Assembly (NCBI RefSeq): GCF_003324675.1
Contig: NZ_CP030918.1
Span: 1,470,001-1,502,000 of the forward strand
Source of the DNA: Paracoccus suum
GTDB taxonomy: Bacteria; Pseudomonadota; Alphaproteobacteria; Rhodobacterales; Rhodobacteraceae
DNA: 32,000 bases
Direction of reading: 5' to 3'
Shown here: piece after piece, positions 26,232 to 32,000 of the stretch
Layout of the letters: each line of letters begins with the position of its first letter
How positions within the stretch are numbered: the stretch's first letter is position 1
Made by a program: the position numbers and the translations under genes
The notes under the pieces: generated by a model
Told to the model about the DNA's origin: nothing
Seen by the model: the letters and a program-made list of their open reading frames with translations, nothing else
Database searches by the model: none

Positions 26232-26405
26232 CCCAGGGCGCACGGGCTGCCGCGCGCCGATATTTCCTTTGTCCTTCGGCTTGAAGGCTCGGTGCGCCGC
26301 CCTATCTGGGACAGGTGGACCGGGCCCCTCTGGCGGCGCTTGCCGTGATGTCGGCCACGCTAAACGCGGCCGCGTGCGGCTGCCGAACGCACACAGAGAG
26401 GGGTC

Positions 26406-27401
26406 ATGGAACCTTCATTGCTCGGAACGATGTTTCTGGGTCAGCCCGCATGGATGTGGCTGACCTTTCTGGCTGCGGTCGTGGTCTTGCTGGTCTTCGA
26501 TCTCGGCATCCTCAACCGCGGCAACCGCGAGATCGGGGTGCGCCGCAGCCTGTCGCTGTCGGCCATGTATATTGCCCTCGGCGTCGGTTTCGGCGGCTTT
26601 GTCTGGTGGCAACTGGGGCAGGAACGCGCCCTCGAATACCTGACCGGCTTCGTGGTCGAGAAATCGCTGGCGATGGACAACGTGTTCGTCATTGCCATGA
26701 TCTTTGGCGCGCTGGCGATTCCGCGCGCGCTGCAGCACCGCGTGTTGTTCTGGGGAATCCTCGGGGTCATCGTCCTCCGCGGCATCATGATCGGTGTCGG
26801 CGCGACGCTGGTGGCGCGCTACGAATGGATCCTGCTGGTCTTTGCCGCCTTCCTAATCTTCACCGGCGCGCGAATGCTCTGGTCCGACGATCATGAGACC
26901 GACCTTTCCAAGAACCGGGTGTTTAATTGGTTGCGCCGCAACCTGCGCATCACCAACCGCCTGCATGGCGAGCGCTTCTTTGTGCGCCGCGCCGACCGCA
27001 ATGGCCGTCGCCACCTTTATGCCACGCCCCTGTTCCTGGCGCTCGCGATGGTCGAGGTCGCGGACGTCATCTTCGCGGTCGACAGCGTGCCGGCGATCTT
27101 TGCCATCACCACCGACCCCTACATCGTCTATACCAGCAACATCTTTGCCATCCTGGGACTGCGGGCCCTGTATTTTGCGCTAGCTGCGATCATCCACCGC
27201 TTTGCCTACCTCAAGCAGGCGCTGGCGGTGCTGCTGGTATTCATCGGCGGCAAGGTGTTCGTGGCCGAGTTCATGGGTATCGAAAAGGTGCCGCCGGTCG
27301 TCTCGCTGGGCGTGACCTTCGTCATCCTCGCCGCGGGGGTCGGATATTCGCTGTGGCGCACGCGCGAAGATCATGCCACGCCCGGGGTGAACAAGGCGTG
27401 A
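26406..27401 (+). CDS. TerC-family integral membrane protein (Alx/YkoY-like)
   Basis: A GAGAGGGG Shine-Dalgarno lies upstream. The protein is multi-TM with the TerC signature VVEKSLAMDNVFVIAMIF and a second repeat AVDSVPAIFAIT. Confidence 0.88.
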   Translation: MEPSLLGTMFLGQPAWMWLTFLAAVVVLLVFDLGILNRGNREIGVRRSLSLSAMYIALGVGFGGFVWWQLGQERALEYLTGFVVEKSLAMDNVFVIAMIFGALAIPRALQHRVLFWGILGVIVLRGIMIGVGATLVARYEWILLVFAAFLIFTGARMLWSDDHETDLSKNRVFNWLRRNLRITNRLHGERFFVRRADRNGRRHLYATPLFLALAMVEVADVIFAVDSVPAIFAITTDPYIVYTSNIFAILGLRALYFALAAIIHRFAYLKQALAVLLVFIGGKVFVAEFMGIEKVPPVVSLGVTFVILAAGVGYSLWRTREDHATPGVNKA

Positions 27402-29871: not shown

Positions 29872-30645
29872 TCAGGCGATGCAGGCAGTCAGCCGCGCCG
29901 CTTCCTCCGCCAGCCCATAGGGCGGGTTCACGACGAACATCCCCGAGCCGATCATGCCGTGGCCTTCGCGAGCCGGCGGAAAGGCCAGTTCGTGGCGCAG
30001 GGCGTCGGGGTGCGCGGCGGCAAGACTGTCCAGCATCTCGGCATGACGGGCTTCCGCCAGAAGTGGGTACCACAGCGCGATCACGCCGACATTCCACTTG
30101 CGGGCGATGCGGTCGACAAAGGCGGGCATGCGGGCGTAGTCCGCCTTGACCTCCCAACTCGGGTCGATCAGCAGCAGCCCGCGCCGCGGCTCGGGCGGGG
30201 CCAGGCGATTTGCCATGGCAAAGCCGTCCTCGAGATGCACATGCGCGCGGCGGCCCATGGTGCGGTTCAGGGCCTCGGCCTCGGCCGGGTGCAGTTCGGC
30301 CAAGTGGATCGGATCGGTGCGCCGCAACAGATGCGCGGCGATCATGGGCGAGCCGGGATAGGCAGTCGCGCCATGCTGCGCGCGGGTGGCGGCGATGGCC
30401 CGGGCCAGCGGGTGATCTACGGCCAGCCAACCGCGCGCCAGGGCGCGGGTTATGCCAGCCTCGGCCTCGCCGGTCCGGAGGGCCTCGGGGCCGGCCAGGT
30501 CATACAACGCGCGCCCGGCATGGGTTTCCAGATAGCTGAGCGGTTTTGGCTTGACTGTCAGGTAGTCCAGCATCCACGCCAGCAGCGCATGCTTGTGGAG
30601 ATCGGCGGCATTTCCGGCGTGGTAGGCATGTTGATAGGACAGCAT
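29872..30645 (-). CDS. rlmJ: 23S rRNA (adenine2030-N6)-methyltransferase
   Basis: ATG at 30645 gives MLSYQHAYHAGNAADLHKHALL, the canonical RlmJ N-terminus, then ETHAGRALYDL and LIDPSWE. A UAAGG Shine-Dalgarno lies 6 nt upstream. The 39 extra codons in the ORF track run into the hairpin array. Confidence 0.88.
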   Translation of the reverse strand: MLSYQHAYHAGNAADLHKHALLAWMLDYLTVKPKPLSYLETHAGRALYDLAGPEALRTGEAEAGITRALARGWLAVDHPLARAIAATRAQHGATAYPGSPMIAAHLLRRTDPIHLAELHPAEAEALNRTMGRRAHVHLEDGFAMANRLAPPEPRRGLLLIDPSWEVKADYARMPAFVDRIARKWNVGVIALWYPLLAEARHAEMLDSLAAAHPDALRHELAFPPAREGHGMIGSGMFVVNPPYGLAEEAARLTACIA

Positions 30646-30667
30646 ATCCCGCCTTACCCCCTTGCAC

Positions 30668-30714
30668 GGCAAAGAAAAAGCGGCGGCGTCTGGGGGAGGA
30701 CCAGACACCGCCGC
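30668..30714 (-). terminator. Intrinsic terminator closing the hairpin array (last hairpin plus U-tract)
   Basis: On the minus-strand RNA a 14-bp stem (one G-U pair) with loop UCCUCCC is followed by UUUUUCUUUGCC (30679 down to 30668). The rlmJ start codon is only about 22 nt beyond the U-tract. Confidence 0.7.
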
Positions 30715-30948
30715 TAAACGCTGATCCGGGGGGAGGACCCGGGCCGCGTAGAGCCGCGACACCGGCCTATGGGGGGAGGGGCCGGGGTCGCTTGGGTGCC
30801 GGACCTCAAGGGGGGAGATCGGTCCGGCGGCACCGGCTTCAGGGGGGAGGACCCTTCAACCGGCGATCTTTTGAGCGGCTACCCCTACAAGGGGGAGGAG
30901 TGGGGCGCCGCCCATGCCCCGGTCCAAGGGGGAGGAGAGTGGACCGGG
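30680..30948 (-). ncRNA. Array of seven C-rich-loop stem-loops (CcsR / 'cuckoo'-like sRNA cluster) in the 3' region of the DUF1127 gene
   Basis: The region has no credible ORF. The seven hairpins, in + coordinates, are 30918-30948, 30877-30909, 30833-30863, 30798-30828, 30762-30785, 30726-30742 and 30680-30714. Every loop reads CCUCCC(CC) or UCCUCCC on the minus-strand RNA. A G-U versus C-A asymmetry and a minus-strand U-tract support the minus orientation. Confidence 0.7.
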
Positions 30949-30956
30949 AAAACTGT

Positions 30957-31184
30957 TCAGAGGGCGAGGCCGTCGGCGGCGTCGCGGGCAACCTGCCGGA
31001 TCGAGCCACGGCTGAGGCCGAGGTCGGCGAGGTCGCGATCGCTCAGCGCACCAAGCTCACGCACTGTCTGGCGATAGATCGAACGACGTGCACGGGCGAC
31101 CCGCAGGTTCTCGAGCATGACGCTGACGCGCGAGGCGACGCCATGCTGGGCGGTGTGGGCGATATTCTGGTCAAACGCGGACAT
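30957..31184 (-). CDS. DUF1127 domain small protein (CcaF1-like)
   Basis: The 75-codon ORF contains RARRSIYRQTVRELGALSDRDLADLGLSRGSI, the typical DUF1127 Arg-rich / L-x-D-I/L-G-L-S-R core. The Shine-Dalgarno is weak. An alternative start is M23 at 31118. Confidence 0.75.
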   Translation of the reverse strand: MSAFDQNIAHTAQHGVASRVSVMLENLRVARARRSIYRQTVRELGALSDRDLADLGLSRGSIRQVARDAADGLAL

Positions 31185-31252
31185 TGGAGCGGACTTTCAA
31201 GTAAAGTTCTGCAGGCTGGCGTTGCCCTCGGGCTTGCTGCTGCGTTGGATCA

Positions 31253-31282
31253 TAGATGGCCTATTTGCTGCAGCTGCACAAT
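31253..31282 (-). promoter_or_regulatory. Candidate sigma32 (RpoH)-type promoter for the DUF1127/sRNA transcript
   Basis: The minus strand reads caTTGtgcagctgcagcaaataggCCATcTAT. The TTG-to-CCAT spacing of 19 nt fits CTTGAAA-N13/14-CCCCATnT geometry. It lies about 70 nt upstream of the DUF1127 ATG. This is pattern match only. Confidence 0.3.
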
Positions 31283-31534
31283 GCCCGTTCAGGCAAAACA
31301 GATATGCATTTCACGCACAAACACTGCGACAAAATGCAGCACGGCCTATCGAAATTGTTATTGAACCGCTCGGTTCCGTCACTATTCCTTCACAAGCCAT
31401 GCAATTAACGCAACGTCAGGTGTACCTGTTGCTGCGTTGCGGCATGGGGTCGAGTGCGCGCCGTTTGCGCCCCTGCACTTGTCGTTGTCGGGCCATGGGC
31501 ACAAGATCGTCCTGAACAGATGTAGGGGTGCGAC

Positions 31535-32000
31535 ATGACGATCAGCCGCGACGAGGTGATGGCCGTGCTTGATCAGATCGCGGTCGAAGGGGGCGGCACG
31601 CTCGCCTCGCGTGATCTGGTGCGCGCACTGTCCGTAGAGGGCGGCGCGGTCCGCTTTGTGATCGAGGTGCCAGACGCCGCGGCGGCAACCGCCATGCAAC
31701 CGGCCGAGGCCGAGGCCCGCGCCCGGCTAGAGGCGCTGGCGGGCGTTTCGCAGGTCAGCATTGTGACCACCGCCCCTACCGTGCGCGAATCCGGACGCGG
31801 CGCGGCGCCCGACCTCAAGATCGGCCGCCACCCGACCCCGCAGACGGGTCCCGAGCCCGTGCCGGGCGTCGGTCGCATTTTGGTCGTCGGCTCAGGCAAG
31901 GGCGGGGTCGGCAAGTCGACGCTGACCGCCAACCTCGCCGTTGCTCTGGCGCGGCAGGGGCGGCGGGTGGGGCTGCTGGACGCGGACATCTATGGCCCGT
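31535..32000 (+). CDS. apbC: Mrp/ApbC/NBP35-family Fe-S cluster carrier ATPase, 3'-truncated by the window edge
   Basis: I translated this by hand because it is not in the ORF track (no stop codon before the window end). ATG at 31535 has an AGGGG Shine-Dalgarno. The protein begins [45 protein letters not shown], a DUF59/MIP18-like N-domain, followed by the deviant Walker [26 protein letters not shown] and LLDADIYGP. Confidence 0.88.

Follow-up and report, generated by a model that had tools for sequence, protein, structure and literature searches.

A seven-hairpin array with C-rich loops behind a DUF1127 gene of Paracoccus suum: a probable ccaF1-ccsR-type (cuckoo RNA) locus

What is encoded in the 311 nt that separate a small DUF1127 gene from rlmJ in Paracoccus suum, a member of the Paracoccaceae (Rhodobacterales), and does this spacer belong to a known family of RNAs? 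The DNA analysed, called the window below, is a 32,000-nt stretch of contig NZ_CP030918.1 (positions 1,470,001 to 1,502,000), numbered here from its first letter. On its minus strand a low-GC intergenic region is followed by the DUF1127 open reading frame (ORF; 30957-31184), the spacer and the ATG of rlmJ at 30645. An earlier reading of the letters and their ORFs, referred to here as the sequence-only reading, had proposed that the spacer holds seven minus-strand stem-loops with C-rich loops, forming a small RNA (sRNA) array of the CcsR or "cuckoo" type. Our analysis leads to the same identification: with a probability of roughly 0.88 this is the ccaF1-ccsR-type operon of P. suum, corresponding to the cuckoo RNA "CIN1" locus. 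The P. suum array is a new, previously unannotated locus of an already known family. What the sequence-only reading had suggested on the occurrence of that family has to be corrected, since Table 1 of Reinkensmeier and Giegerich, 2015 (PMC4615179) already reports cuckoo loci in Paracoccus denitrificans (22224) and P. aminophilus (44).

The assignment is carried by structure, strand, clustering, family homology, conserved gene context, promoter and terminator motifs and family-level covariation. In the centroid structure of the minus-strand RNA 30660-30960, seven separate stem-loops are found, making up an array at 30679-30954; they are designated hp7 (next to the DUF1127 gene) to hp1 (next to rlmJ), with approximate minus-strand spans, in that order, of 30918-30948, 30872-30914, 30832-30865, 30798-30828, 30756-30791, 30719-30749 and 30679-30715. 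The minimum free energy (MFE) is -151.8 kcal/mol, as compared with -119.1 +/- 5.4 for dinucleotide shuffles (z = -6.1, with none of 100 shuffles as good), while the plus-strand fold gives a z of only -2.2. The single wobble in the hp1 stem is U-G on the minus strand and would be C-A on the plus strand, and a U-tract follows hp1 on the minus strand only. The number, sequences and orientation of the hairpins in the sequence-only reading were thus correct, as were their positions, though the stems of hp6, hp3 and hp2 are composite and extend beyond the inner parts that it had listed.

From hp7 to hp1, the loops read CUCCUCCCCCUU, CUCCUCCCCCUU, UCCUCCC(CCC), UCUCCCCCCUU, CCUCCCCCC, UCCUCCC(CCC) and UCCUCCC(CC). 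All carry CCUCCCCC(C) or CUCCCCCC; CCUCC is kept in six of the seven, hp4 having CUCCCCCC. Four of the loops are 11-15 nt long; in hp5, hp2 and hp1 the neighbouring G's pair with the lengthened C-run, which leaves loops of just 7 nt in the MFE fold. The word CTCCCCC occurs nine times in the 64 kb formed by both strands of the window, and seven of these occurrences lie on the minus strand at 30692-30934, where the expectation for a stretch of the size of the array is about 0.03; the cluster is therefore far beyond chance. All six GGGGGAGG words in the window likewise fall within the array. The seven-hairpin array with C-rich loops is real and strand-specific. Between the loop regions of hp5 (30839-30854) and hp2 (30725-30740) there is a near-repeat, 94% identical, and Tandem Repeats Finder detected no tandem repeat in the array. 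A recent 120-nt duplication, with hp7-6-5 corresponding to hp4-3-2, was considered and rejected; it has no sequence-level support, only short loop-centred direct repeats being present.

The published cuckoo matcher accepts two or more adjacent hairpins of 24-50 nt whose helices reach 6 bp or more, with interruptions of up to 6 nt and linkers of up to 10 nt, a loop of 9-27 nt containing CCUCCUCCC or an allowed variant, and a fold with at least 0.85 of the MFE energy (PMC4615179). The P. suum hairpins, at 31-43 nt and 8-15 bp with centroid linkers of about 2-8 nt, lie within its limits for these features, and the centroid (-145.1 kcal/mol) has 0.96 of the MFE energy, above the 0.85 limit, as calculated with ViennaRNA rather than with the authors' own matcher. 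The locus shares with CIN1 the modular, adjacent hairpins beside a DUF1127 orthologue group, and compact multi-hairpin units have been described in Paracoccus (PMC4615179). It differs in that P. suum lies outside that census and lacks the exact 9-mer, and in that its linkers are all at most 10 nt, which by the published rule makes one unit of seven hairpins, while the reported units have 2-4.

The position of the array behind a DUF1127 gene is shared by most of its relatives. When genomes were scanned with a DUF1127 homologue alignment, 80 loci were returned from genomes and metagenome-assembled genomes of Rhodobacterales. According to a simple hairpin scan, about 68 of these have 2-14 hairpins with CCUCC-type loops immediately 3' of the DUF1127 stop and on its strand, and almost none are located upstream or on the opposite strand. 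With four further loci (L081-L084) included, at least two CCUCC or CUCCC words are found within 92 nt after the stop in 63 of 84; most of those 63 have two hairpins, with the words in the loops, at offsets equal to those of hp7 and hp6. Many related arrays start with GUUU(U)C, the corresponding sequence in the window being AGUUUUCC. The sequence-only reading had thought that the copy number might set this array apart from described members, but it is unremarkable: 85 arrays have a median of 8 motifs and a maximum of 17, as compared with seven at a mean spacing of 39 nt in the window, and contiguous runs of 9-11 closely spaced hairpins are present in other fetched loci. Both copy number and density are ordinary.

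Close relatives are few. The scan that gave the 80 loci returned neither another Paracoccus locus nor P. suum itself, the best 120 hits of a profile protein search included no further named Paracoccus, and a metagenome scan with the P. suum DUF1127 protein returned no relative above 55% identity. With no closer metagenome relative, the Logan contig L081 is the sole close comparator, and fine-scale covariation is underpowered. L081 encodes a DUF1127 protein 76% identical to that of P. suum and has the same DUF1127-spacer-rlmJ order; in its spacer, which shares about 88-89% identity, none of the seven hairpins has been lost and the loops still have their C-runs. Its hp4 is identical; the outer stem of hp5 is maintained through G-C to G-U and U-G to U-A changes, and hp1 has one compensatory change, U-A to C-G. 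Over 81 base pairs, two changes are compensatory (in hp6 and hp1), five are one-sided with pairing retained, and eight pairs are broken.

At curated thresholds, Rfam has no match in the array region. When an 801-nt slice was searched in E-value mode, the CcsR1 model (RF02791) matched at 30870-30953 (28.0 bits, E = 1.2e-4) and again at 30675-30754 (26.8 bits, E = 2.7e-4), the three-hairpin ar14 model (RF02344) spanned hp7-hp5 at 30829-30954 with 28.4 bits, and the 6C model (RF01066) gave 34.8, 33.9 and 25.0 bits, with E = 0.0098 and 0.014 for the top two. The best of these sub-threshold matches (both for CcsR1, that for ar14 and the top two for 6C) all lie on the minus strand and cover the full length of the model. 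A gathering-level Rfam scan of 20 related loci -- 19 from other genera with canonical CCUCCUCCC arrays, and L081 -- produced only four matches, two to CcsR1 and two to ar14, and, according to the authors who described it, the cuckoo family is poorly served by covariance models (PMC4615179). Given such narrow thresholds and that statement, failing an Rfam threshold lowers confidence only slightly.

A covariance model, R1, gives an independent view of the family; it was built from 12 geometry-matched first units of other genera, realigned with Infernal, with the window and L081 left out. In 81 related loci it detected 193 units at E <= 0.001, scoring 31-87 bits, with 192 of them on the strand of the DUF1127 gene. 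In the window it found exactly three, all on the minus strand, and the next match there had E = 0.09; a second model, R2, was rebuilt from 150 hits, and for both models the E-values are rough, coming from a shortened calibration. The first predicted sRNA unit (hp7 + hp6; 30870-30953) begins in AGUUUUCC just past the DUF1127 stop and is the positional equivalent of CcsR1; R1 matches it at 30874-30948 with 34.4 bits (E = 1.1e-5), R2 gives 37.7 bits (E = 7.5e-6), and the 28.0-bit CcsR1 match falls here. Unit 2 (hp4 + hp3; 30755-30828) has 22.4 bits with R1 (30758-30828, E = 3.2e-3) and 29.8 bits with R2 (E = 2.4e-4), along with the 33.9-bit sub-threshold match to 6C. Unit 3 (hp2 + hp1; 30670-30749) has 35.1 bits with R1 (30679-30745, E = 7.8e-6) and 36.7 bits with R2 (E = 1.2e-5), and coincides with the 26.8-bit match to CcsR1. 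The hairpin hp5, at 30832-30865 with loop UCCUCCC, appears in the fold as a single hairpin and lies outside every two-hairpin model match. By these scores the units of the window are divergent members of the family, but members.

In an alignment of 150 units, 94.3% of the cells are paired and double substitutions are seen at 20 of 20 pairs; a covariation score of 0.641 was obtained, whereas shuffles gave 0.200 and slid partners no more than 0.114. From 55 first units aligned with MAFFT, RNAalifold derived no consensus structure, because variable stem lengths misalign hairpin 1. Across genera, then, stems covary and loops are conserved.

These data also bear on the idea that the array is a stack of structural repeats, either REP-like palindromes or redundant terminators, that does not act in trans as RNA. 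The hairpins are indeed GC-rich (the array region has about 70% GC) and densely packed at their mean spacing of 39 nt, and the last one is terminator-like. Such repeats would leave the conservation of the loops across genera, alongside covarying stems, to be accounted for, as well as the presence of 192 of 193 R1 hits on the strand of the DUF1127 gene and the restriction of the elements to the region downstream of one protein family. Moreover, only hp1 has a U-tract, and the homologous arrays of Rhodobacter sphaeroides are experimentally shown sRNAs (PMC8034643). We regard the structural-repeat explanation as very improbable, and the CcsR/cuckoo assignment is retained.

The gene in front of the array encodes a CcaF1-like small protein of 75 aa (30957-31184, minus strand; Pfam DUF1127, E = 3e-11), which matches an NCBI protein of Paracoccus suum at 100% identity from end to end and shares 49% identity with its homologue at L035, where the gene lies directly upstream of an Rfam-valid CcsR1 (86.7 bits). 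Sequence searches of NCBIfam and PDB with this protein gave nothing useful. The array begins 4-9 nt after the stop, on the same strand.

Upstream of the gene, where the sequence reads CATTGTGCAGCTGCAGCAAATAGGCCATCTATGATCCAAC, an RpoH-type promoter is predicted at 31252-31281 (minus strand) from its motif, spacing and conservation in the family. Its TTG is found at 31281-31279, at the start of the family block TTGTGCAGCTGCAGCA (31281-31266), and CCATCT at 31259-31254; the arrangement is TTG, 21 nt, ATCT, with 22 positions from the G of TTG to the A of ATCT. The logos for R. sphaeroides RpoHI and RpoHII have TTG at -36 to -34, A at -12 and T at -9 (PMC3441632), and the equal geometry places the predicted transcription start near 31245. 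The pattern TTG-N17-19-C.AT.T was found upstream of DUF1127 in 55 of 83 loci, as compared with 22 of 642 control segments. The exact 16-mer pattern TTGTGCA-N3-GCAGCA, which occurs once in the window, has a single copy on the strand of the gene in 67 of 122 related loci, where it precedes the DUF1127 match by 75-210 nt; the block is also conserved in L081. The promoter thus appears to bear a family-wide signature. Across genera it can be written (A)TTGTGCA-N3-GCAGCA-N5-6-CC.ATnT-N~9-CAAC and is very strongly conserved; its invariant GCAGCA spacer block is not accounted for by the published description of the RpoH logos, and a literature search for the promoter string found nothing relevant. This block could be the site for a second regulator.

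Several findings weigh against placing the array in the CcsR/cuckoo family. The defining 9-mer, CCUCCUCCC, is absent from all seven loops, and the 7-nt loops of hp5, hp2 and hp1 are shorter than the 9-27 nt of the published matcher. The Rfam gathering scores of 65.3 (CcsR1) and 58.8 (ar14) are not reached, and the scores of 22-38 bits with the custom models stand at the low end of the 31-87 bits seen in the family. The alignment that shows covariation (A5) was fitted to the structure of the model and hence leans towards that structure, and the pairwise changes relative to L081 are insignificant when taken alone. As to covariance models, the outcome that the sequence-only reading had named as a refutation did occur with Rfam, where CcsR1 and ar14 stay below threshold; we do not regard it as decisive, and the independent R1 and R2 recognise three units. 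Its broader identification of a CcsR/cuckoo architecture behind DUF1127 is supported by the roughly 68 of 80 homologous loci, the three R1 units, the RpoH-type promoter and the terminator.

The variant loops, which the sequence-only reading had also pointed out, are genuine. In a census of 585 clustered hairpins from 118 other loci, 391 have canonical loops and only 32 have a run of at least five C's; the CCUCCCCC/CUCCCCCC loops are the one distinctive trait of the P. suum array and are rare elsewhere. When the loops of L007, L029, L045, L047, L049 and others are compared with those of the window, they prove to be uniform within an array and to differ between lineages, CCUCCUCCC being found in most loci, CUCCUCCCUU in Jannaschia-like loci, and CCUCCCCC in P. 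suum and L081. Such lineage-specific, array-uniform loops suggest concerted evolution of the repeated loops, and homogeneity within arrays seems to be a property of the family.

The C-runs raise the question of whether the units are instead 6C RNAs, a family of the Actinobacteria (RF01066) that likewise has two hairpins with C-run loops. The C5-C6 runs are as in 6C, and the 6C model has the highest raw Rfam bits in the region, 34.8 and 33.9, on units 3 and 2. It does so because the flanking G's pair with the longer C-run. Those scores are under the 6C gathering score of 47, however, and their E-values of 0.0098 and 0.014 are worse than the 1.2e-4 of CcsR1; the host is an alphaproteobacterium, from a different phylum, and 6C RNAs do not have the DUF1127 context, whereas in P. 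suum the genes around the array, its promoter and the loci homologous to it are those of the DUF1127/cuckoo lineage. The loop is, in addition, a single U-to-C change away from CCUCCUCCC. A 6C identity is thus exceedingly improbable, and the resemblance is best read as convergence through that U-to-C change. One might go further and speculate that the joint change, in all seven P. suum loops and most of those of L081, marks a retargeted sub-lineage in which the loops and their G-rich targets co-evolved, converging on the logic of 6C, with the rlmJ leader sequence CAAGGGGG as a possible target, and, as a separate point, that the spacer block of TTGTGCA-N3-GCAGCA is the site of an as yet undescribed second regulator of ccaF1-ccsR operons; we consider this proposal unlikely.

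At the distal end of the array, hp1 (30715-30679, minus strand) has a 15-bp stem and a 7-nt loop and is followed by UUUUUCUUU, which makes it terminator-like on the minus strand only. The sequence beyond the stem is TTTTTCTTT, with the U-tract at 30670-30678. Alone among the seven hairpins in having such a tract, hp1 is also the sole terminator-like site in 30400-31600, and it is predicted, together with its U-tract, to be the intrinsic terminator of the operon. The start of rlmJ lies 34 nt past this stem and no sigma-70-like promoter was detected in 30400-31600; rlmJ may be transcribed by read-through or from a promoter within the array.

This arrangement could mean that the hairpins control rlmJ in cis, serving as its leader or attenuator, with expression depending on read-through of hp1 and the C-rich loops sequestering the G-rich ribosome-binding region of rlmJ. 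Besides the short distance and the apparent lack of a separate promoter, the conservation of the DUF1127-array-rlmJ order in L081 would fit, as would the fact that CAAGGGGG in the rlmJ leader (30657-30664, minus strand) is the exact complement of CCCCCUUG in the loops of hp7, hp6 and hp4. That complementarity is absent from L081, however. In L082-L084, the other related loci with inspected gene calls, the array is followed by another gene, which lies on the opposite strand, while the linkage of array and DUF1127 holds across the fetched loci, and hp1, with its 15 bp and U-tract, is a strong terminator. A cis function as the explanation of the locus is accordingly very unlikely, though it could be an add-on to the sRNA function rather than an alternative to it.

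A coding function for the spacer can be considered here as well. Candidate ORFs exist mechanically: rlmJ can be extended to a GTG start (29872-30762), and there are plus-strand ORFs at 30769-31077 and 30792-31364. The Pfam match of rlmJ (RsmJ, E = 1.9e-47), however, agrees with the ATG at 30645; the N-terminus that follows from this start, MLSYQHAYHAGN, resembles that of E. coli RlmJ. The plus-strand ORFs run antisense to the well-supported DUF1127 gene and consist of the G-rich complement of the loops, with Gly/Arg-rich, low-complexity translations, and long spurious ORFs are expected at 70% GC. There is hardly any likelihood that the spacer is protein-coding, and we return to the sRNA operon.

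Homology to R. sphaeroides is the guide to whether the operon would be transcribed and induced by stress, where its RNA would be processed, which mRNAs it would target and what the protein would do. There, the RSP_6037 (ccaF1)-CcsR1-4 transcript starts at an RpoHI/HII promoter and is cut by RNase E into four two-hairpin sRNAs, with GUUU(U)CC after the stop being the RNase E site that forms the 5' end of CcsR1; the mRNA of flhR is a target of CcsR1-4, which in this way influence C1 metabolism and pyruvate dehydrogenase, and CcaF1 is an RNA-binding protein that modulates CcsR levels (PMC8034643). Stress induction and dependence on Hfq or CcaF1 also count among the criteria for a locus of this type (PMC8034643). 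The P. suum locus resembles that of CcsR1-4/CcaF1 (RF02791) in having a same-strand DUF1127 gene followed by tandem two-hairpin units with C-rich loops of anti-Shine-Dalgarno type, a predicted RpoH-type promoter, a terminal intrinsic terminator, a GUUU(U)CC-like sequence after the stop, and full-length matches to Rfam CcsR1 at both ends of the array. The differences are that these matches, of 28 and 27 bits, are far under the gathering score of 65.3, that the loops have CCUCCCCC(C) rather than CCUCCUCCC, and that there are seven hairpins with linkers of at most 8 nt instead of four clearly spaced two-hairpin sRNAs. In addition, hp5 has no partner, and the downstream neighbour is rlmJ.

By this homology, a stress-responsive RpoH-type promoter near 31281-31252 would drive a minus-strand transcript encoding the 75-aa DUF1127 (CcaF1-like) protein, presumably RNA-binding, followed by a 3' untranslated region of about 290 nt that would consist of the seven hairpins, with their anti-Shine-Dalgarno-like loops, and end at the terminator hp1. 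RNase E would cut in the single-stranded linkers AGUUUUCC, CAAAAGAU and GGCUCUAC, as in the processing of CcsR1-4; sequence analogies to the reported cleavage motifs GUUUCC and CUCUUC (PMC8034643) are seen. The likeliest products would be hp7+hp6 (about 80 nt), hp5+hp4+hp3 (about 110 nt) and hp2+hp1 (about 80 nt). This 2+3+2 segmentation, drawn from the model hits and the AU-containing linkers, is the most likely one, though the ar14-like alignment of hp7-hp6-hp5 and the repeat between the hp5 and hp2 loop regions make other splits possible. The loops then exposed, with CCUCCCCC or CUCCCCCC, would base-pair with target mRNAs at G-rich or Shine-Dalgarno-like sites, and sRNA levels would be modulated by the DUF1127 protein encoded on the same transcript.

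Another known relative is ar14, or NfeR (Smr14C), of Sinorhizobium meliloti (RF02344), a three-hairpin variant of cuckoo whose model aligns over its full length with hp7+hp6+hp5. The score of 28.4 bits is below 58.8, and hp5 in P. suum does not have a U-tail; the Sinorhizobium sRNAs, unlike the P. suum array, lie 5' of their DUF1127 gene (PMC8034643).

On the other side of the promoter, an apbC/mrp-like gene for an Fe-S assembly ATPase (31536-32000, plus strand) is divergent from the DUF1127 gene and separated from it by an intergenic region of about 350 nt with 50-54% GC; an apbC/mrp-like upstream neighbour is present in L082-L084 as well. Elsewhere in the window, a terC RNA motif (Rfam RF03067) at 26312-26362 on the plus strand scores 50 bits against a gathering score of 39.9, the sole gathering-level Rfam match in the window, and lies directly upstream of a gene for a TerC-family membrane protein (26406-27401, plus strand).

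The biology of the P. suum locus is what would be expected, CcsR/cuckoo arrays behind DUF1127 genes being widespread in the Rhodobacterales. The practical value of the finding lies in annotation: as the sequence-only reading had foreseen, ORF calling misses the locus, and so do the curated thresholds of Rfam. With Rfam giving four units in 20 loci, as against 193 in 81 with R1, the family is systematically under-annotated by Rfam-based pipelines. Of modest, specialist interest are the lineage-specific flavours of the loops and a promoter signature that extends beyond generic RpoH elements.

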